Shown: positions 3,073 to 17,238 of the stretch, piece by piece
Numbering within the stretch: the stretch's first letter is position 1
Layout: each line of letters opens with the position of its first letter
NCBI GenBank assembly: GCA_965261345.1
Contig: OZ253449.1
Coordinates: 928,001-992,000 of the forward strand
Direction of reading: 5' to 3'
Source of the DNA: Chloroflexota bacterium
Lineage (GTDB): Bacteria; Chloroflexota; UBA11872; VXNJ01
DNA: 64,000 bases
Program-made: the position numbers and the translations under genes
The notes under the pieces: generated by a model
What the model was told of the DNA's origin: nothing
Database searches by the model: none
The model's input: only the letters and a program-made list of their open reading frames with translations

Positions 3073-4990
3073 TTGACTCCACACCACAACGACCCCGAAA
3101 TCACCGAGATCGCCCGGGACCTGCTTGATCGGCACCACTCCGGCGCGACTGAACAGAACGTGCTGAGCGCGGCCCGCGCTTTCCTGGTGGCGACGGAACT
3201 GTTCGATTCCAGGGAGCTGGGTGAGCAAATCGCGATCGGCGGCGGATTGGTCGACTTGATCGGACGATCGCACATCTTCGAGTTCAAACGACGTGTCGGC
3301 TTGTCCAATCGCATTCGCGCCGAGTATGTAAAGCAACTCGACGGGTACCTGGAGGCAGCCAGCACCGAGGCCCCGCAGGTGCGCTACGGTGTACTAACCG
3401 ACGGGCGCAGTTGGGTACTGCGCTGGCCAGGCCAGAGCGATGCCGAACCCACGATCAACCGACATTTTTCGTCTGGAGCGCCCTGATGACTGGTTTCTGC
3501 TCTACGAATGGCTGGCCGAGCAAGTATCAGTTGATGTCGAACCGCTCAAACCAACGGCGACCAATATTGCGGCTCAATTGGGTTCCGGCAGCCAGACCTA
3601 CCGAATCGCTATTGATCAGTTGCGGGAATTACGGCGGCTCAATTGGGTTCCGGCAGCCAGACCTACCGAATCGCTATTGATCAGTTGCGGGAATTATGGC
3701 GGCGCGCCGCCAACCCTAATTCGATCGAAGTAAAGAAAGAGCTCTGGCAGGACCTGCTGGCGGCCGCCCTCGGAGAAGCCGGACAGGTTGCAGATTCCGA
3801 AGACCTGTTCCTGCGGCACACTTACCTGTCGGCGGCGGTCGGCATTGCAATCCATGCCGCGTTTGGCCTGAGGGTATCCGAAATCGCCCAGAACGAGCCG
3901 GAAGAAATTCTGAACGGCAATCGGTTCTTTCTCGACACGGGAATCCACGGAGCGATCAACCAAGGGTTCTTTTCGTGGCCGAGTGAGGTTGACGGTTTCG
4001 CGAATTGGCTCGGGGCGCTTACCGGCGCAGTCAATCAATTCGATTGGTCGGGGCTCGACCAGGACTTTGCCCGCCTGCTGTATGAATCGATCATCTCGCC
4101 CGGCGAACGGCGCGATCTCGGCGAATACTATACGCCGCAATGGCTCGCTGACGCGGTCGTCGAGGAAGTTGTGACCGACCCCCTTAATCAGAGTGTCTGG
4201 ATCCGGCCTGCGGGTCGGGAACGTTCCTGTGGTCGGCGCTGCGACGTTATATCAACGCCGAGCGGGCAGCTGGTATGGCGCCTGCGCAAATGCCCGATTG
4301 GGCCTTAAACAACGTAATCGGCATGGATGTCCTTCCGGTGGCGGTCTTGCTCGCGCGCGCGGCCTGGCTGTTTGCGGTCCGCGATCTATTGGACGAAACG
4401 AACTGGCAGCAAGGGACGGCGGTGCCCGTTTACCTGGGCGACTCGCTGCAGTTGCGAACCGGCTATCGGCACGACCAGATATTCGGCGACTCGGCGGTCG
4501 TTCCCATCCGCGCCAAGGACGAAACGAAGGCGCGTGAATTACGGTTCCCGGTGGCGCTGGTTGATCAGAGCGATTGGTTCGATGACGTGATGCATTCGTT
4601 GGCGCGGGAGATCGAGAGCGGCGGAGATCCCGAAGCCTGGCTCAATAGCGACTCAATGCTCAGAGGAGAGCCTGACTTGGCGCATACGGCGCGCCAGCTG
4701 GCTGAATTGCACCGCAAAGGTCGCAATCACATCTGGGCCTACTACACCCGCAACTTGGTGCGCCCGATTGCATTGGGCCGGCGAAAGGTCGACGTGATCG
4801 TTGGCAATCCGCCCTGGATCTACTACAACCAAACAGACAATTTAATCCGGGATCGAACGAAGGAGTTGAGCCGCAGTTATGGGATCTGGTCAGGCGGACG
4901 ACATGCCGCCAACCAGGACATAGCCGGCCTTTTTTCACTCACTCCGCTCACTTATACCTCAAAGATCCAGGACAGATAGAGTTTGTTTTG
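3073..4990 (+). pseudogene. Type IIG-like fused restriction endonuclease / N6-adenine methyltransferase, frameshifted and truncated
   Basis: N-terminal PD-(D/E)xK-like region (VDL..IFEFK, QL..Y, GVLTDG..W), LGEYYTP, motif I LDPACGSGTFL (alternate frame at about 4197) and motif IV GNPPW. Frameshifts at about 3470, 3570-3700, about 4196 and about 4933. Ends at LYLKDPGQIEFVL, directly against the IS left end. Confidence 0.88.
3569..3696 (+). repeat. Tandem duplication with 65-bp period
   Basis: 63 identical bases at 3569-3631 and 3634-3696, bounded by GCGGC microhomology. Confidence 0.95.
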
Positions 4991-5065
4991 GAGGATTATA
5001 TCGCAGGGTTGACACGTCTCCAGATTGAAGGCAAACTAGACTATTAGCTGCCAAAGAATCTACTC

Positions 5066-6007
5066 ATGACCCAGAGAGCCCCGGGCAGATCCCACCGCGA
5101 GGGCGTAACCCTGCTTGAGCTTGCCGAACTATTTCCCGACGAAGAATCCGCCCGCCAGTGGTTCGAAGACATCCTATGGCCCAATGATGACCAGCCCTGT
5201 CCGCGCTGCGGCTCTGTCAACACACACGAGGCCAGCCACAAGAAGATGCCTTACCGCTGCCGTGATTGCCGCTCGTATTTCAGTATCAAAACGGGCACGG
5301 TTATGGAAGGTTCTCCTCTGCCGCTCCGCAAGTGGGTTTATGCTATCTACTTGGATGTAACCAGCCTCAAGGCCGTTTCCAGCATGAGGCTGCACCGCGA
5401 TCTCGGTATCACGCAAAGAACTGCCTGGCACATGCAGCAGCGCATCCGCGAGGCATTCGCCGAAGGCCCGCCCGTGCCGTTCGCCGGGCCGGTCGAAGCG
5501 GACGAAACTTACATAGGTGGTAAGCGCAAGAACATGCCCCGGCGCAGGCGCGAGCAACTAACTGGGCGCGGCGCGGTCGGCAAGATTGCAGTTGCCGGAG
5601 TCAGGGACCGAGCCAGCGGGCAAATCTCGGCCGCTGTGGTTTCGATTACTAACAGCGTGGCGCTGGTTCCCTTCGTCGCCGAGCGAACCGCATCGGATGC
5701 GCACGTCTATACGGACGATCACGGAGCGTACCGATATCTACCGCGCCGCCATCAGGTCGTGCGTCACAGCGTGGGCGAATACGTGGACGGCATGGCGCAC
5801 ACGAACGGACTGGAATCGTTCTGGGCGGTGCTCAAGCGCGGTTATCACGGGACGTTCCATCACTTCAGCGCAAAGCACGTCCAGCGTTACGTCAACGAGT
5901 TTGCCGGTCGACACAACATCCGCGACCGCGACACGCTGGAACAAATGGCCATCATCTCGCGCGGGATGGTCGGCAAGCGCTTGCGCTACCGGGAGTTGGT
6001 GGCCTAA
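5066..6007 (+). CDS. IS1595 family transposase
   Basis: Zn ribbon CPRCG...CRDC; DDE motifs VEADETYIGG, VYTDD, HTNGLESFW, YVNEF..RHN; frame intact. Confidence 0.95.
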   Translation: MTQRAPGRSHREGVTLLELAELFPDEESARQWFEDILWPNDDQPCPRCGSVNTHEASHKKMPYRCRDCRSYFSIKTGTVMEGSPLPLRKWVYAIYLDVTSLKAVSSMRLHRDLGITQRTAWHMQQRIREAFAEGPPVPFAGPVEADETYIGGKRKNMPRRRREQLTGRGAVGKIAVAGVRDRASGQISAAVVSITNSVALVPFVAERTASDAHVYTDDHGAYRYLPRRHQVVRHSVGEYVDGMAHTNGLESFWAVLKRGYHGTFHHFSAKHVQRYVNEFAGRHNIRDRDTLEQMAIISRGMVGKRLRYRELVA

Positions 6008-6027
6008 CGGCCGCCGGAGTCGAGCGA

Positions 6028-7443
6028 ATGGGCCACCCGAACTGGGCCGGCAAGACTATCTTCACCGGCGACAACCTGCCGACAATGCGCGGCATGAATT
6101 CGGAGTCGGTGGACCTTATCTACTTGGACCCGCCATTTAATTCGAAAACTGACTATGCAGCGCCCATCGGCAGCAAGGCGGCGGGGGCTGCGTTCAAAGA
6201 CACTTGGTCGCTTTCTGATATCGATGTCGAGTGGATCAATTTACTTGAGGCCAAGCACTTGAGGCTTTGGCGAGTGTTGATGGCGGCAATGACGCCAAGC
6301 GACAAATCGTACTTGGCTTACATGGCGGTGCGATTGCTGGAAATGCACCGAATCCTCAAGCCAACCGGCAGCATCTATTTGCATTGCGATCCAACTATGA
6401 ACCATTACCTGAAATTGGTCATGGATGCGATATTCGGGATCCGAAATTTCCGCAATGAGATTGTCTGGAGACGCAGTGACTCGAAGGCAAGGGGGAGTCA
6501 GCACACGGCTCGCAGTTGGGGCAACAGCATAGACTCCCTGCTGTTTTTTTCGAAAAGCGATCAAGCGGAGTTGAAGCCGCAAATCGTAGGGGAGATGAAT
6601 GAAGCGGAAATGAAGCGGAAATTTCCCAAGGTAGACGCGAACGGCCAACGGTACAACACCAAAACGACTGCTTGGTGCTCTCCGTCAATGGGTGCGCGTC
6701 CGAACCTCTGCTACGAGTTTCGCGGCATCACTCCGCCGTACCCGTCCGGTTGGCGGTTGAGCCGTCCGCGGATGGAGGAAGAGTTTGCCAAAGGCAACAT
6801 CGTAATTCGCAACGGCAAGCTCGAACGGCGTTCTTACGCCAAGGACTATCATGGTGCGTCTCCCGCCAATCTGTGGGCCGAAACCGAATTGCTGCTCTCG
6901 GCGCATTCAAGCGAACGCACTGATTACCCGACCCAAAAGCCGCTTGCCCTGCTAAACCGCATAATCCAAGCCAGTTCCAATCCCGGTGATTTGGTATTCG
7001 ACCCGTTCTGTGGGTGCGCCACTGCCTGCGTAGCCGCCGAGCTCGCCGGGCGAAATTGGGTGGGAATCGATATATCACCGAAAGCCGCGCAACTAGTGCG
7101 GGCGCGACTGCAAGAACAACCGCCGCTTGGAATCGGTTCACTTTTCCACAACCGGCTGGTAGCGCACCGCGAGGACATTCCATTTCGCGATGATTTGGGC
7201 TTACTGCCGCCATACAACTGCATTGCCAACCGAAATGCGCTATACGGAGCCCAGGGCGGGCATTGCGCAGGCTGCGGCGAGCACTTCATGACGCAACATC
7301 TGGAAGTTGACCACATCATCAGCCGCTCGAAAGGCGGCACGGATCATCTCGAAAACCTGCAATTGCTGTGCGCGCATTGCAATCGCGTCAAAGGCGATCG
7401 TGGGATGGAGTATCTGCGGACAAAACTCCAATTGGCGGCCTGA
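6028..7443 (+). CDS. Beta-class amino DNA methyltransferase fused to a C-terminal HNH endonuclease
   Basis: DLIYLDPPF (motif IV), YPTQKP, DPFCGCAT (motif I); C-terminal CAGC...EVDHIISRSKGGTDHLENLQLLCAHCNRVKG. Confidence 0.92.
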   Translation: MGHPNWAGKTIFTGDNLPTMRGMNSESVDLIYLDPPFNSKTDYAAPIGSKAAGAAFKDTWSLSDIDVEWINLLEAKHLRLWRVLMAAMTPSDKSYLAYMAVRLLEMHRILKPTGSIYLHCDPTMNHYLKLVMDAIFGIRNFRNEIVWRRSDSKARGSQHTARSWGNSIDSLLFFSKSDQAELKPQIVGEMNEAEMKRKFPKVDANGQRYNTKTTAWCSPSMGARPNLCYEFRGITPPYPSGWRLSRPRMEEEFAKGNIVIRNGKLERRSYAKDYHGASPANLWAETELLLSAHSSERTDYPTQKPLALLNRIIQASSNPGDLVFDPFCGCATACVAAELAGRNWVGIDISPKAAQLVRARLQEQPPLGIGSLFHNRLVAHREDIPFRDDLGLLPPYNCIANRNALYGAQGGHCAGCGEHFMTQHLEVDHIISRSKGGTDHLENLQLLCAHCNRVKGDRGMEYLRTKLQLAA

Positions 7444-7458
7444 GAGAGAAGCTCAGGA

Positions 7459-7578
7459 ATGCCCAAGAAACGCAAGGCCGGCCGGCCGGCCAAGTACGGC
7501 AACTCGACGCCGAAGCAGGTAGCAGAAGTCCTCTTGCGCTACCGCCCGAAGAAACCCCGGAAGAAGCGGCGCGGCTAG
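7459..7578 (+). CDS. 39-aa highly basic peptide inside the IS1595 element
   Basis: MPKKRKAGRPAKYGNSTPKQVAEVLLRYRPKKPRKKRRG; fills the gap between the MTase stop and the right IR; purine-rich upstream sequence. Confidence 0.5.
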   Translation: MPKKRKAGRPAKYGNSTPKQVAEVLLRYRPKKPRKKRRG

Positions 7579-7705
7579 GCTTCGTCAACCTTGATATTGA
7601 ATCCCCTTATTCGACAGATCATGACAAGGCGGCGAATGTACTACAGAACGACGGGTTGCGGGAGCGTTAACCGATTGACAACCAGCTTCGGGAATCGAGA
7701 CGCCT

Positions 7706-8842
7706 ATGTCAATGCATAGTGACGCTGCACATCGGGTACACCACGCATTCGAGATCATTAACAACCTGTGGAATACGAATGACATCAATCAAGACATCAT
7801 GCCTGAATACGCAGCAGCGCAAATATGGGCGTGGGCGCCAAATTGTTATTCACTGCTCGAGCAATCACTAAAAGTCTTGTGGGCTACCCGGAAAAAGATC
7901 GAACTCAGCGAAATCAAATCAGAAATCATGAATTTGGAAGGCGGGCGGTCCGGATTACACGACTTGGAGTTTCTATTTGGCCTTCAGACAGATTCGGACA
8001 AAAAGATCCTAGGTACGGCGTTCCAGTCCTGTCGTCGGCTTCATGATTACCTTCCGATCACTTCATTACCTGAGTTTCTAAAGAGCATTGGGCGCGGATA
8101 CACCGATTGGCGGTACATGCTGATCGAAGGCATTGAAAAGTTGCCGGGTAGCCACATAGATACGATGATCGAGCTCGCAGAAGCGGCGACCTTGACTTTG
8201 ATGCACGAGCATCACCGCAACATCAATTACCGAAGCATCGAGGTGAGGATTCAAGAAAGCCTTGATCGTGCTGCGTTTAATGCCGCGACCATGGAGTATG
8301 CCAGCAATTACCCAGAATTGGATAACGACGACGAATACATGGAGTACTTCAAGAGCATACTTCGCCAAACTCACCACTTAATTGAACGCAATCCAGTTTT
8401 GGTGTTGCGGTACTTGGACCTCGCAAAAGAACCCATGCCATCCGGTTTTGTACCCCAGGACGATACCAGTCGCATTGCGTTAATTTGTCGCGATCTACCA
8501 CCTAACGAACTTAAGCATTTGCGGCAATATTTCTTCAAACAGACTCCGCTGGGCAAGCTCAATCTGTCGGGGAGGGAATCGGACTGGTTGCGCCTGCGGA
8601 TGTACGAAGCCCGGACTGTGTTAGACCGCGCTCAAGATTCCGGCACCGTAGAAAACAACAGATTGATGCGATTGTATGAGGCCGAGCGACGTATCAAAGA
8701 GCTCGAATCTGATCTGTACTCGTTGGATAAGGATGCCAAGCATGCAGTGGATCGTTTGGCTGAACTAGACGAAACCGAGGTTCAGTGGGTCGAGATTGAC
8801 GCTGCAATTGACCTCTTATTGGGCCCAACAGGTCAGGAATGA
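7706..8842 (+). CDS. Hypothetical protein with N-terminal HEPN-like domain and C-terminal coiled coil
   Basis: Pattern EQSLKVL...HDLEFLF...YTDWRY resembles HEPN; 378-aa ORF with lower GC than the core genes. Confidence 0.6.
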   Translation: MSMHSDAAHRVHHAFEIINNLWNTNDINQDIMPEYAAAQIWAWAPNCYSLLEQSLKVLWATRKKIELSEIKSEIMNLEGGRSGLHDLEFLFGLQTDSDKKILGTAFQSCRRLHDYLPITSLPEFLKSIGRGYTDWRYMLIEGIEKLPGSHIDTMIELAEAATLTLMHEHHRNINYRSIEVRIQESLDRAAFNAATMEYASNYPELDNDDEYMEYFKSILRQTHHLIERNPVLVLRYLDLAKEPMPSGFVPQDDTSRIALICRDLPPNELKHLRQYFFKQTPLGKLNLSGRESDWLRLRMYEARTVLDRAQDSGTVENNRLMRLYEAERRIKELESDLYSLDKDAKHAVDRLAELDETEVQWVEIDAAIDLLLGPTGQE

Positions 8843-8857
8843 TTCTGAACCGGGATC

Positions 8858-9397
8858 GTGTTCTCACGGTGCAAGATAGAGCACTCTAAGTTGAGCACTG
8901 CGCTACGAGTCAGACAGGGTCTTGGTCGGCATCCCGGAGCACACCCTCTGGACTACAGGGTTCTGCTTCCGCATCGCCGAGTCCCCGATCAGGGTACGAC
9001 GCTCATTACCCTCGCGGAATATGTCCGGCAAACGCCGAAACTCGAATCAGTCAATTCCCTAATCAAGAAAGCGATTGAGTACGCATCGTGGGAACCTGGC
9101 TGGGATGGTGCGGGTGCAGAGAAGATCAGCATCCTCGCGGTTCAGAATTTTTTGCGAATCCTCCGGTCAACCTTCCCGGTGATCGAATTACCTCACATCG
9201 CCCCAGCAATGACCGGTGAAATATTGGTCCAGTGGGCGTTCGGAGACCACGACTACATTGAGATTTACGTAGGTGAGAACGATGTTTTTCCAACAGAAGC
9301 ACACGCCGTGCAAAACGGGAATATTTCCGATCATGCACTCACGGATGTCGGCACATTGGTGCGATTGGTGGCGAGGGTCAGGGCTCGTTCGTATTGA
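8858..9397 (+). CDS. Hypothetical protein with GWDGxGA motif
   Basis: EPGWDGAGAEKI...LPHIAPAMTGEILVQW; stop overlaps the next start (TTGA). Confidence 0.65.
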   Translation: MFSRCKIEHSKLSTALRVRQGLGRHPGAHPLDYRVLLPHRRVPDQGTTLITLAEYVRQTPKLESVNSLIKKAIEYASWEPGWDGAGAEKISILAVQNFLRILRSTFPVIELPHIAPAMTGEILVQWAFGDHDYIEIYVGENDVFPTEAHAVQNGNISDHALTDVGTLVRLVARVRARSY

Positions 9398-10501: not shown

Positions 10502-12236
10502 TGATCAACGACTTTTAGATTTCCGGTCGCATTGACTCATTGTTTTTGTAACCCAAACAGGGCCGTTGCCTCACAAGATTTGTAACCCAAATCTCTACGG
10601 AGGCAACCGATGGCAGGAAAGAAGCTGAGCCGGGCGGTGCGGAAGGAGCTGCTAGCGGCCTTAAGGGGCCGCTATGCGCGGGCGTCCAAGATCGAGAAGG
10701 GCGCGATTCTGGACGAATTCGTAGCCCTTAGCGGCTACAACCGCAAATACGAAACCCGATTGCTGGGCAATGCTGCAAGCCCTGATCCGGTACCGCCCAC
10801 CAAGTCCACATACCGCATCTACGACGAGGCCGTCAGGGAGTCCCTGATCGTCCTCTGGGAAGCAGCCGATCGGATCTGTGGCAAACGATTGAATGCGATC
10901 CTGCCGAACATGATCGAATCACTGGAAGGGTATGGCCACCTGCAGCTTGATCCGGATGTACGCAGCAAGCTGCTCTCAATCAGCCCGGCATCGATCGATC
11001 GGATGCTCAAACCAGTGCGCAAGACCGCCGGCAGCAGTCGCAGGCGTAATCCCCGCCGCCGCAATCGTCATCACGCCAAAGTCCCGATCAGGACGTTCGC
11101 CGATTGGCATGGCCCCGATCCCGGTTATCTGGAAATAGACCTGGTGGCCCACTGCGGTGGCAACATGGCCGGGAGCTTCATCCAGACTCTGTCAGTTACC
11201 GACGTTGCCTCGGGCTGGGTTGAAGCAGTCCCGCTGCTAGCCCGCGAGCAGACGCTGGTGACTGGGGCGCTTGAGGTTATAGCCGGGCGGGTACCGATTC
11301 CAGTGCTCGGCATTGACTCGGATAACGACAGCGCCTTCATCTCCCAGACCTTGATCGATTACTGCCGACAGCGCGGGGACCCAAGTTCACCCGCTCACGC
11401 GCGTATCGCTCCAACGATCAGGCCTTCATCGAGCAGAAGAACGGGGCCGTTATACGCCGCTTCGCCGGTTACGAACGCTTTGCCGGCTTCATCGCCGGAC
11501 AGACCCTGGCCCGACTCTTTGCCTTAGTCGGTCTCTACACCAATTTCTTCCAACCGTCTTTCAAACTGATCTCCAAGCAGCGCTATGGAGCCAGAACTCT
11601 AAAGCGCTACGACCGTCCGCTAACTCCCTGCCAGCAACTGCTTGATCATCCCGCTGTTGCCGAAAAGGTTAAGGAGCGGTTGCGCGCTACGCGCTTGCAA
11701 CTGGATCCGCTATTGCTCCTTAGCGAGATCCGAGCGGCCCAGTCGGCCCTGGCCACATTGGCATCGCCCGAGGAAAGAAGCAAGGTGCAAAGGGAAGACC
11801 TGTCACAATTCCTGGCCAAGCTCTCTCATCTCTGGCGCGAGGGCGATGCCAATCCGACGCGCCGTCCCAAACGAAAGCGCCGCAGGTGGTGGCGGACTTG
11901 CCCCGACCCCCTAGAGCATGTCTGGCCCGATGTACTTACCTACCTGCAGGATCATCCCGACGCCAGCGGCATGCAGATCTTGAAAGTGCTCATGCGTGAT
12001 CACCCCGACGCCGTCGGGCCCAAATAGCTGCGGACGTTGCAGCGAAGGCTCAAGCAATGGCGGTCGGTGATGGCCAAAGAGCTCGTCTACGGAGTCGTAA
12101 ACGGTGCTGATGGTGCGGTTGAAAATGCCGAAATCGTACGTGTAAACGCACCGATTGGGGCCAGATAAATGGTCCGCAATTTCGATTACATTTTTAGATG
12201 AGGCAACGGGACGGCAAATCTAAAAGTCGTTGATCA
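10502..12236 (+). mobile_element. 1735-bp insertion sequence (DDE/rve, ISNCY-like) with perfect 21-bp terminal IRs
   Basis: TGATCAACGACTTTTAGATTT at 10502-10522 and its reverse complement at 12216-12236; TG...CA ends; subterminal TTGCCTCA-N8/9-TGTAA repeats. Confidence 0.88.
10610..12168 (+). pseudogene. Integrase-core (DDE) transposase, inactivated
   Basis: YLEIDLVAHCG, IDSDNDSAF, then a frameshift at about 11380 into FTRSRAYRSNDQAFIEQKN; internal TAG at 12025-12027 followed by LRTLQRR. Confidence 0.85.
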
Positions 12237-13167: not shown

Positions 13168-13563
13168 CTATGGGATCGACGGATTGCTGGAAATTGCCGC
13201 GAATGTCTGGTCAAAGGTCTTGATCTCCCGGACACCTCGCCGTCGGCAACTGGCCAGATGACAAAGATCCCGGGCTTGCAATTCAAGGTATTCCTCATGG
13301 AGCCGCCGGGCCAGAGCCACATCCGCCTCTTCCAGCGGCCAAACCTCAACAGCGGCACTCGCTATCAACTCTAGCGTCGCATCGAGGGTGTGCAGCCTTC
13401 CGGTGGGCAAGTATGCATGGGCCAGTTCCTGCATGACCTCTGCTGAAGTGCACAGTGGCGCGCCACTCCGGTTGGCTTCAACGAAGAAGCGTTGGGCGGG
13501 CGTCTGGAGTGCGTGAGGGCGACCTACCGCGTACATGAACACGTTGGTGTCAACGAAAATCAC
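13168..13563 (-). CDS. vapC: PIN-domain toxin
   Basis: IFVDTNVFMY...SAEVMQE...RDLCH...IKTFD; the GTG start overlaps the antitoxin stop (GTGA). Confidence 0.92.
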   Translation of the reverse strand: MIFVDTNVFMYAVGRPHALQTPAQRFFVEANRSGAPLCTSAEVMQELAHAYLPTGRLHTLDATLELIASAAVEVWPLEEADVALARRLHEEYLELQARDLCHLASCRRRGVREIKTFDQTFAAISSNPSIP

Positions 13564-13835
13564 GTTACGGCAACGCCTCGTCCACGCGACTCGCTGATGA
13601 CTCGCAAGTGCTCGCTCCAGTCTGGCTCCGTCTCCGGACCTTCTAGCGTGGCGCATGACCTGAAGAACTCCTCGACGTCTTCCGGGGACCCGAACAGCTT
13701 GACGCTCTGGAGCGTTTCGAGGCGCTCTCGGGCGGCTGCCCGCAGCCACGCGCTGAGGGATATTCCCTCCCGTCGTGCCTCGTGAACGAAGCGATCTCGG
13801 TCATCGTCCGGCATCACCAACTGCACTCTGGCCAT
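13560..13835 (-). CDS. vapB: Antitoxin, RHH/CopG-like
   Basis: MARVQLVMPD...ARREGISLSAWLR, directly upstream of the PIN toxin; RBS GGAGG. Confidence 0.85.
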   Translation of the reverse strand: MARVQLVMPDDDRDRFVHEARREGISLSAWLRAAARERLETLQSVKLFGSPEDVEEFFRSCATLEGPETEPDWSEHLRVISESRGRGVAVT

Positions 13836-15730: not shown

Positions 15731-16447
15731 ATGGATCAGGTAACTGAGCTCGCATATTTTCTGGGCGATCAATTTCAGCGCCTGCACTGGGGCGCGCTGG
15801 CCGTGACCGTGGCTGCCGCCCTGCTTTGGACGCGATTGGTCTCCTCGCCGCAGCTCTCTGGAATCGGATTCTGGCTGGCGATTGGCGGGGGCGCGGCCAC
15901 CGGTGCAATCTCGACGCTCTGGGTCCAGCCCAATGTCACCCAAGCGGTGGGCGACATTGCCGCCAGCAGCGAAACCATCGCCCCCCAAGGCGCCCATCTC
16001 GTCCAAATCGCAGTGGTTGCCCTGGATCTGGTGCTGGTCCTGGCGGTGTTGGTGTTGGTGATCGTCCTGGCCCAAGTGCGCTTGACCCCCGGTCCGGTGC
16101 GGTCGGTTTCGCAGGGCTTTGGGATCGGCTACTCTGGCCATTTTCTCCAGCAGCGGCTACCTGGCGATTTTGCCGCTGGAATCTCATCCGAACTGATCGC
16201 GCCAATCGCGGTCGGCGGCATGTTGGTGGCCATCGCCATGGCGACTGCCATGCTGCTTGGTCACGCTCGTCTCACCGGCGGTTATCCGGGCCGCTTGTTA
16301 CAGGCGATCGCAATCAGCCTGGCCGGCCGCTACATCCTCGACCTGGAAGATCCTAGCTGGCAGGCCGCCGGACTGGGCCTGCTGGGTCTGGTGGCGCTTT
16401 TTTATGCTTCGGCGACTACCCAGACACGGCCGCGAACACGCTATTGA
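15731..16447 (+). CDS. Hypothetical multi-pass membrane protein
   Basis: 238 aa, many hydrophobic helices. Confidence 0.65.
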   Translation: MDQVTELAYFLGDQFQRLHWGALAVTVAAALLWTRLVSSPQLSGIGFWLAIGGGAATGAISTLWVQPNVTQAVGDIAASSETIAPQGAHLVQIAVVALDLVLVLAVLVLVIVLAQVRLTPGPVRSVSQGFGIGYSGHFLQQRLPGDFAAGISSELIAPIAVGGMLVAIAMATAMLLGHARLTGGYPGRLLQAIAISLAGRYILDLEDPSWQAAGLGLLGLVALFYASATTQTRPRTRY

Positions 16448-17205
16448 ACTCCCTGGGCAATCGTTATCAATTGCCCGAAGATTTGCGCCGCTAGCGAGGC
16501 GCCCCCCACCAGGGCGCCGTCGATGTCTTCCTGGACCGCGATTTCCGCCCAGTTGTCCGGGTTCACGCTTCCGCCGTAGAGCACGCGCAGGTCGGCGGCA
16601 GCGGAACCGAAGCGCTCAGATATCCAACCCCGCACCGTGCCGGCGGCGGCCCCGGCCTGGTCAGGGGAGGCGGTATGGCCGGTCCCGATCGCCCATACCG
16701 GTTCATAGGCGATGCTCAGGCGCCCGATTTGCGATTGGTCGACCGACCGCAGGCCAAGCTGCAGCTGCTCCCTAATCACACCGTCGGTGGCATCGGCCTG
16801 GCGTTGATCTAAGGTCTCGCCGACGCAGAGCATGACATCCAGGGAGGTTGCCAATGCCGTTGCCACCTTGGCACCGATCAGTTCCGAGGATTCGCCATAT
16901 ACGTGACGGCGTTCGGAATGCCCCAGCAGCACCAAGCTGCAGATTTCGGCCAGCATTGCCGCCGAAACCTCGCCGGTAAAGGCCCCGGCCGCAAGTTCGT
17001 GGGCGTTCTGTGCGCCCAGTCGGACCGGCCCGCCGGCCAGTGCTGAAGCGGTGGCCGGCAGCGAGACAAAGGACGCAAACAGGGCCACGTCAACACCTGG
17101 GTTGGCGCGGGCAAGAGGATTGACCTGGGCAGCCAGCTTGGCGGCCGCGGCCGGACCGAGATTCATCTTCCAGTTGCCGGCAACTAACAGCTTGCGCGAT
17201 TTCAT
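16441..17205 (-). CDS. tpiA: Triosephosphate isomerase
   Basis: AGNWKMN, GHSERR, AYEPVWAIGTG, LYGGSV, GALVGGASL. Confidence 0.98.
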   Translation of the reverse strand: MKSRKLLVAGNWKMNLGPAAAAKLAAQVNPLARANPGVDVALFASFVSLPATASALAGGPVRLGAQNAHELAAGAFTGEVSAAMLAEICSLVLLGHSERRHVYGESSELIGAKVATALATSLDVMLCVGETLDQRQADATDGVIREQLQLGLRSVDQSQIGRLSIAYEPVWAIGTGHTASPDQAGAAAGTVRGWISERFGSAAADLRVLYGGSVNPDNWAEIAVQEDIDGALVGGASLAAQIFGQLITIAQGVQ

Positions 17206-17238
17206 ATGCACCCCATGTCGGCAGATTGGCGCAAGCGG

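Follow-up and report, generated by a model that had tools for sequence, protein, structure and literature searches.

An IS1595-type element with a fused methyltransferase–HNH gene as cargo in a Chloroflexota genome, and its mobile relatives

Can a plain insertion sequence (IS) carry as its passenger a single gene that joins a DNA methyltransferase (MTase) to a nuclease domain, and what would such a gene do for the element or for its host? The question is raised by positions 4991–7606 of a 64,000-nucleotide stretch of DNA from a Chloroflexota bacterium (assembly GCA_965261345.1, contig OZ253449.1, positions 928,001–992,000), which is called the window below and whose numbering is used unless a locus is named. 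This segment, 2,616 bp long, is an IS1595-type element with a fused MTase–HNH gene as cargo. An initial annotation of the window had placed such an element with a passenger here, and its open reading frames (ORFs), domains, and coordinates are all borne out.

The IS1595-family transposase gene (5066–6007, plus strand) encodes a full-length protein of 313 aa with an N-terminal zinc ribbon. In profile searches, it matches PF12762 (4e-36 over positions 3–153 of 153), PF12760 for the zinc ribbon (2e-08), and NF033547 (6e-52 over positions 2–215 of 215; 176.6 bits vs a cut-off of 75). The passenger gene (6028–7443) follows on the same strand after 20 nt and encodes a protein of 471 aa in which a beta-class N6/N4 MTase with a variable recognition region is joined through a conserved linker to an HNH domain at the C-terminus. 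The match to PF01555 covers aa 28–356 (5e-40) and spans a long insert; the central variable region, a putative target recognition domain, corresponds to aa 149–295 (6472–6912, plus strand). The HNH nuclease domain (7264–7401, plus strand; aa 413–458) is of the CxxC...DH...N...CxxCN type and matches PF01844 at 3e-14. Then comes a small basic ORF of 39 aa with the core motif STPKQVAEVLLR (7459–7578, plus strand). The left terminal inverted repeat, GAGGATTATATCGCAGGGTTGAC (4991–5013, plus strand), includes a TTGACA hexamer, and the right one (7584–7606, minus strand) reads GGGGATTCAATATCAAGGTTGAC as the reverse complement. Short-read contigs from public runs span 4736–5823 and 5798–9000 with zero differences from the window; the stretch is present in four contig runs, all of one sample. 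A scan of 4900–7750 for promoters and terminators gave counts not above those of shuffled sequence.

Does such a unit move? The relatives examined are the 80 closest MTase–HNH loci, taken from contigs of one genome per species (L, G, and P numbers stand for loci, genomes, and proteins). At six loci, repeat pairs identical at 23–24 of 24 positions enclose both the transposase and the MTase–HNH gene. Their layout is tandem in L009 (3,207 bp), L066 (2,942 bp), and L041 (3,974 bp, with an extra 429-aa ORF nested inside), convergent in L008 (3,718 bp) and L024 (2,607 bp), and divergent in L021 (2,427 bp). In L012 and L079, the two genes lie within repeats of a second type (..GATTATCCCCTTGACACA), and in L071 within repeats of a related one. 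Perfect 8-bp target duplications are seen in L021 (ATTGCTTA), L024 (ATATAAAG), L066 (AAATCTTT), and L041 (TCTGTTTT); in L008 the flanks match at seven of eight positions, and in L009 a duplication is absent. In G040, a genome from the same order as that of the window, a 2,479-bp unit stands at four places with 99.96% identity. Its layout is that of the window element, i.e., transposase, a gap of 13 nt, and MTase–HNH, with repeats matching at 24 of 25 positions and 8-bp duplications TTCTCGTA, CGTTTACC, and CTTTTGTT; the flanks form three distinct sets, two of the places having flanks in common and perhaps being a single locus. G032 holds a convergent unit of 4,018 bp twice, at 99.75% identity, with L079 being the same element. 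These related transposase + MTase–HNH units transpose as a whole. The check for matching repeats around homologs, proposed in the initial annotation, came out in its favor: in relatives, repeats and duplications enclose both genes. Of the linked relatives, P0004 is the closest; it is a gene call of 777 aa in which the transposase is read into an MTase–HNH 67% identical to that of the window.

Some of these loci bear further genes. ORFs of 117–234 aa overlap the MTase–HNH start directly upstream in L008 (4298–5002), L012 (4336–5004), L071 (4502–5020), and L079 (4604–4957); they lie inside the IS units and, by eye, have N-terminal hydrophobic stretches. No significant mutual BLAST similarity was detected among them, and no Pfam family was found for those of L008 and L012; they may represent a second, fast-evolving cargo gene. 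Further putative transposase genes, nested in MTase–HNH loci or adjacent to them, are found in L041 (6283–7572, which cuts off the HNH tail), L071 (6171–7202), L019 (3714–4696, DDE_Tnp_1 type), L063 (3519–4556, IS240-type DDE, a Nitrosopumilus record), and L017 (6327–7211, IS1 type). In L114 (1899–7398), from the same-genus genome G006, a related MTase–HNH gene, whose N- and C-terminal parts show 73–74% identity, is interrupted by about 2.9 kb that contain ORFs of 527 and 257 aa and is followed by a homolog of the small peptide; a divergent IS1595 transposase adjoins, with an end motif between both genes.

The association of the two genes has also been weighed over all 80 loci. With the window transposase as a tblastn query, a match lies within 1.1 kb of the MTase–HNH gene in 16 of them. 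The same matches number 16 in the 168 kb near MTase–HNH vs 4 (at 2 loci) over the 560 kb of the outer flanks, which is an about 13-fold higher density. When neighboring ORFs within 3 kb were clustered, the one family that recurred was the IS1595 transposase (12 loci by ORF); tandem MTase copies came second (6 loci), and all others occur at no more than 4 loci. Linkage of the homologs to IS1595, which the initial annotation had named as a point to check, is therefore present.

The ends of the window copy require a separate consideration. The inverted repeats are identical at 16 of 21 positions (4993–5013 vs 7584–7604) and, when extended to 4991–5013 and 7584–7606, at 17 of 23, as had been noted before. 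An end motif, GGG[GA]ATTA...TTGACA, is common to the 160 nt upstream of related transposases and has been found in L009, L008, L024, L041, L066, and L067; in the form GGnnATTAT, we take it to resemble that of the ISNwi1 subgroup of IS1595. Both window ends fit the family motif, the left one as GAGGATTATATCGCAGGGTTGACA and the right one, in reverse complement, as GGGGATTCAATATCAAGGTTGACG, and by eye the right end agrees with the L009 end GGGGATTACAAAGAAAGGTTGAC at 17 of 23 positions.

The left junction is documented by the gene into which the element is inserted. A type IIG (Eco57I-like) restriction–modification (RM) pseudogene, frameshifted and cut at residue 619 of about 912, occupies 3073–4990 (plus strand). 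It consists of three ORF pieces in differing frames, with a weak match to PF07669 under the cut-off, and shows 73–78% DNA identity to genes of the same-genus genomes G005, G006, and G003; the gene is uninterrupted in G005 (912 aa) and G006 (1031 aa). In tblastn, the type IIG proteins of G005 and G006 and the C-terminal ORF of G003 align through window position 4990 (residue 619 in G005), and no homology to these proteins was found past 4990 anywhere further in the window. Foreign DNA therefore starts at 4991, which agrees with the earlier remark that the left repeat begins where the type IIG frame breaks. The final ~290 codons of the type IIG gene are missing from the window, so that the right junction is not the original one. 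Among contigs of the public runs, no empty-site form of the element was found; many short contig "joints" at the window, with sides of 20–35 letters and less than 95% likeness, were rejected as homologs from other organisms. Taken as a whole, window 4991–7606 is very probably a transporter IS (tIS) of the IS1595 family.

What does the passenger encode? The order of motifs, DPPF (aa 34–37) and then DPFCGC (aa 325–330), with both being at least 90% conserved in 119 diverse sequences, is that of the beta class, in which motif IV (DPPY/F) precedes motif I (FxGxG) and the recognition region lies between them. The HNH set C413, C416, D428, H429, N443, C448, C451, and N452 is at least 90% conserved in the same sequences, with C413 invariant, and so are the linker residues P385 and R387. 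The beta-class assignment with DPPF first and FCGC last, and the intact zinc-binding HNH, both stated in the initial annotation, are confirmed by the motif order and the matches to PF01555 and PF01844. Both families are present in 118 of the 120 best homologs. A single polypeptide carries the catalytic motifs of an MTase and a nuclease motif. For the fusion protein, no NCBIfam model reached its cut-off, and PADLOC gave generic MTase_II/III models only.

The region aa 149–295 is 18–68% identical to 30 homologs, in contrast to 59–81% for the N-terminal part, 60–82% for the C-terminal MTase part, and 56–84% for the HNH domain; the predicted variability of the central region relative to its flanks (56–84%) is thus real. 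In P0084, for example, the corresponding identities are 73, 18, 82, and 84% (N-terminal, middle, C-terminal MTase, HNH), and relatives from the same order give split N-terminal and C-terminal matches within single ORFs. The region is thus swapped between close relatives, a pattern expected of an exchangeable target recognition domain, which aa 149–295 putatively represents.

By sequence, the nearest solved relatives are CcrM, M.BceJIV, RsrI, MboIIA, DpnA, and Type III Mod, while the nearest named HNH domains belong to IscB, Cas9, and a group II intron maturase. An AlphaFold2 model built on a deep alignment reached a predicted local distance difference test score (pLDDT) of 93.1 and a predicted template modelling score of 0.90; a first model from 31 sequences (pLDDT 67.7, HNH below 50) was set aside. 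The best Foldseek matches are the EcoP15I Mod subunit (4zcf, 1e-17), the Mod-like MTase 6k0w, CcrM (6pbd), M.BceJIV (8urk/9c3u), MboIIA, and RsrI (M.RsrI, 1eg2), and no fused MTase–nuclease chain is among the matches listed. A homodimer is predicted via the MTase core (residues 79–89, 122–148, 161–184, and 278–284) with a score of 0.77, the best of three controls scoring 0.00; of 30 proteins whose solved structures are pairs of one chain, 20 reach this mark, vs 1 of 23 with single-chain structures. The runs, which used a custom-built alignment, have at least 77% of contacts in common, and the partner pLDDT is at least 78. The prediction may reflect only the likeness to solved beta-class MTase dimers.

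The same MTase frame is joined, in G032, to a different nuclease, a PD-(D/E)xK domain of the Mrr_cat type (PF04471 at 3e-07); an IS1-like transposase follows within a unit of 3,508 bp, which is present in two copies at 99.97% identity (L107 1498–2994 and 2888–3952; L115 3781–7288; L116 2223–5730). Modular RM enzymes likewise swap nuclease folds on a common MTase scaffold, and this observation points to a nuclease function.

The small basic ORF proved to be a recurrent companion of the fusion gene. A core motif [NG][AST]TPExLAxALLR with flanking basic residues is found in small ORFs at six other MTase–HNH loci (L114, L010, L102, L032, L008, and L009), and in L114, which is from the same genus, and L010 the peptide ORF stands directly after the MTase–HNH stop. 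Among the seven peptide copies, identity by codon position is 0.59, 0.79, and 0.36 for the first, second, and third positions, respectively, which is a coding pattern; the ORF is no chance product of a GC-rich tail. Neither Pfam nor PADLOC gave a family for the peptide, and its best score in a protein atlas (0.78) is under the useful range; a Pfam search at E ≤ 10 with six peptide homologs returned sub-threshold noise only. One might guess that the peptide is a small DNA-binding controller.

The family to which the cargo belongs is very large. In a word-indexed search, all 8,000 of the 8,000 scored candidates were significant, and an exhaustive search over 50% identity clusters gave 43,841 representatives at E ≤ 1e-3 and 3,060 at E ≤ 1e-30, with many of the matches consisting of two stretches that skip the middle. 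The best-scoring cluster representative, P0121 (1,598 aa), matches the query in seven stretches and is perhaps a tandem array that has been translated as a single protein. The 80 closest loci, 42–58% identical to the window protein, are distributed, according to the labels of metagenome-assembled genomes, among Dehalococcoidia and other Chloroflexota (33), Poribacteria (13), Gammaproteobacteria (7), Acidobacteriota (5), Alphaproteobacteria (5), Poriferihabitaceae (3), and Latescibacterota, Rhodothermales, Flammeovirgaceae, and Nitrosopumilus (2 each), with six others. Several of these carrier lineages are sponge-associated. Such a spread argues for transfer across phyla and domains. At least 80% of the MTase–HNH is covered in none of the 269 phage records with a match, those listed ending at about residue 362, i.e., with the MTase part alone; this lack of the HNH domain in phage homologs also points to a nuclease function. 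Plasmid records covering 80% number 3 of 2,752; a homolog on a plasmid of Rhizobium sp. Pop5 (39% identity over residues 11–460) provides a cultured carrier.

How could these parts work together? The overall reading we favor, with slightly more confidence than doubt, is that of an IS1595 tIS with a one-protein RM-like cargo, the window copy being worn at its ends. According to this scheme, one transposase would move a unit carrying the MTase–HNH gene and the gene for the small basic peptide; the element would have landed in a type IIG restriction gene, and the DNA to its right would later have been lost or replaced while the ends diverged. The cargo homodimer would read its site through the central variable region, and the beta-class domain (DPPF) would methylate this site, probably at adenine N6, the modification to which DPPF and the relatives in its class point. 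The two HNH domains of the dimer would cut DNA devoid of the mark, and the small peptide would perhaps serve as a DNA-binding regulator. The cargo would pay for its keep as a defence and could punish loss of the element. As for the RM-like function of the cargo taken by itself, the odds are about even.

A broader proposal, somewhat less likely than not, is that IS1595 transposons spread an undescribed class of one-protein RM systems, in which a dimeric beta-class MTase with a swappable cassette and a C-terminal HNH would be accompanied by a basic-peptide controller. Transposon and cargo would make up a mutualistic selfish pair, changing specificity by cassette exchange, in many bacterial phyla and in archaea (Nitrosopumilus).

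A number of observations weigh against the favored reading, and several of them concern the window copy. Within a 3.2-kb region, its repeat pair ranks 9th of 108 inverted pairs and, taken alone, is not above chance. No 8-bp target duplication is present, the flanks being TTGTTTTG and TTATTCGA (4 of 8 positions). The copy is single in its genome and its repeats are diverged (17 of 23); the sole other match there is another transposase gene with 74–76% DNA identity. The enclosure of the cargo at the window therefore rests on comparison with relatives. Lack of a target duplication is explained by the right flank not being the original target, and the 17-of-23 repeats reported earlier, at chance level by themselves, become credible owing to the family end motif, the left junction, and the exact ends in relatives. 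The initial description of the element as a candidate self-mobilising cassette is not supported for this copy, which looks immobile by its diverged repeats, missing duplication, and single occurrence. Judging from its sequence, the window copy is probably immobilised and still coding; it is a decayed member of a large family and not a new phenomenon.

Other adverse points come from the relatives and from the cargo itself. By tblastn, 63 of the 80 loci lack any transposase match. In a set of 14 pairs, including the duplicate L079/L112, identities of the transposase and of the MTase frame correlate only moderately (r = 0.47; 8 of 5000 permutations were as high), and L011 and L012 pair a window-like MTase frame (71–74%) with a distant transposase (34–38%), while L108 shows the reverse. 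Discordant pairs and a moderate correlation suggest that the association was formed or reshuffled several times, i.e., that it arose more than once or that partners were exchanged. L055 bears (4869–6407) a transposase-less cassette of 1,539 bp, in which MTase–HNH alone stands between IS1595-type repeats identical at 25 of 25 positions, and the 8-bp duplication, TTCATTTT, is perfect; next to it is another, separate copy of IS1595, and the cassette looks mobilised in trans. An IS1595 end separates the transposase from MTase–HNH both in L055 and in the same-genus G006, so that simple adjacency does occur. The HNH domain is truncated in L041 and L071. Finally, the RM activity of the cargo is deduced from sequence, HNH domains also serve in repair, homing, and mobility, and a single-chain RM enzyme has no obvious way to delay cutting in a new genome.

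Three other explanations should be considered along with the favored one. It is unlikely, though it survives best of the three, that the cargo serves the element itself: HNH would break or nick unmethylated sites, thereby killing cells that lose the element or stimulating recombination, homing, or transposition, while the MTase would protect the carrier; this is the addiction role suggested in the initial annotation. Such a role would suit the repeated presence of the cargo, in tandem, convergent, or divergent arrangement, within IS1595 units, its linkage to different transposase subgroups, the existence of the transposase-less cassette with its perfect duplication, and the occurrence of the family across many phylum-level lineages, including Nitrosopumilus. 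However, the evidence does not tell this role from plain defence, with which it is compatible, and the 63 loci without a transposase match indicate that the gene persists without an IS.

It is rather improbable that the cargo is in effect only an MTase with an epigenetic or anti-restriction role, with HNH being a DNA-binding or structural appendage incapable of cleavage. Solitary enzymes are frequent among beta-class MTases of the same fold (CcrM, M.BceJIV), the surroundings of the 80 loci show no conserved partner nuclease or ATPase, and some element-borne copies have a truncated HNH (L041, L071), but the general-base DH, the Asn residues, and the four zinc cysteines are at least 90% conserved in 119 diverse sequences, and HNH is kept in 118 of the 120 best homologs. 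In addition, phage homologs, for which a purely protective role is expected, are those that lack HNH (0 of 269), and the parallel fusion bears a different nuclease fold. It is very improbable that a plain IS1595 ending before 6028 happens to lie beside a resident MTase–HNH gene with a fortuitous right repeat at 7584–7606, as the rank of the repeat pair, the missing duplication, and the internal IS1595 ends in L055 and G006 might suggest, given that only 20 nt separate the two genes and the end-motif scan found no end there, the right end, too, fits the family motif, G040 has the same layout in a unit of similar size with exact ends and duplications, and type IIG homology is not resumed after 6007 or elsewhere in the window.

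It remains to compare the favored element and its cargo with known systems. The founding description of the IS1595 family is said to be that of Siguier, Gagnevin, and Chandler in 2009 (Res Microbiol 160:232). Passenger-carrying IS1595 elements are a described class, the tIS (parts of the TnCentral preprint, 10.1101/2021.05.26.445724). Like them, the element has a single zinc-ribbon DDE transposase, short inverted repeats at its termini, and passengers inside the repeats; the 8-bp target duplications typical of the class are here found in relatives, the window copy having none and its ends being diverged. Its particular passenger is an MTase–HNH fusion with a small peptide.

In the passages used here from the review by Pingoud et al. 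2014 (PMC4081073), single-chain RM enzymes are mostly composed of an N-terminal PD-(D/E)xK nuclease and a gamma-class MTase, the named exception being BtgZI with an MTase of the alpha class plus a PD-(D/Q)xK domain at its C-terminus; these passages make no mention of a beta-class MTase that bears HNH C-terminally. With the type IIC/IIG enzymes described there (MmeI, Eco57I, BpuSI, BtgZI) the cargo shares the presence of MTase and nuclease in one chain, the absence of a conserved separate partner gene, and a swappable recognition module that presumably serves both activities. It differs from their rule in that its MTase is of the beta class (PF01555), the recognition region lies between the MTase halves, the C-terminal domain is HNH, and a stable homodimer is predicted; the usual type IIG architecture, an N-terminal PD-(D/E)xK with a gamma-class (NPPY) MTase, is not that of the cargo. 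Type III Mod and solitary beta-class MTases provide its best matches both by fold (EcoP15I, CcrM, M.BceJIV, M.RsrI; Foldseek E 1e-17 to 1e-13) and by sequence, and share with it the DPPF-first order, the central recognition region, and, by prediction for the cargo, the dimeric state. Unlike Type III Mod, it has HNH fused C-terminally via a conserved linker, and no Res helicase–nuclease neighbor is recurrent in the 80 loci or present in the window. No description of an MTase–HNH fusion, or of an IS1595 passenger of such a kind, was found in the literature searched, with REBASE and ISfinder being outside its scope; passages of PMC10305163 and PMC9674854 were checked and are not relevant. By its sequence, the element would be a new member of the tIS class, and the cargo, if active, a novel variation on single-chain RM.

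The surroundings of the element are a small island that includes the type IIG pseudogene, ORFs of lower GC at 7.7–9.8 kb for which no family matched, an ORF of the rve type, and an ORF with a PIN domain. A 378-aa ORF at 7706–8842, in a lower-GC stretch (0.48–0.50), has no Pfam, NCBIfam, or PADLOC match, and its region gives a 69% DNA match at an unrelated place in the same-genus G003. The integrase-core (rve-type) ORF, which is under the Pfam cut-off, lies at 10610–11527 and the PIN-domain ORF at 13168–13749, while the triosephosphate isomerase gene at 16441–17211 marks ordinary chromosome. Elsewhere in the same genome (G000:C1:2211514-2212158; L002/L003), there is a second IS1595 transposase gene, 55% identical at the protein level, with an end-like motif, GGGGCTTATATAC, upstream; no MTase–HNH match was found beside it.

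The family is more noteworthy than the window copy itself. If the fusion is active as a one-chain RM system, it would add a new Type II architecture, namely a dimeric beta-class MTase with HNH, and the family, with its swappable recognition region, could supply new specificities. If this is true, plain insertion sequences would join phages, plasmids, and islands as movers of complete defence units between phyla.

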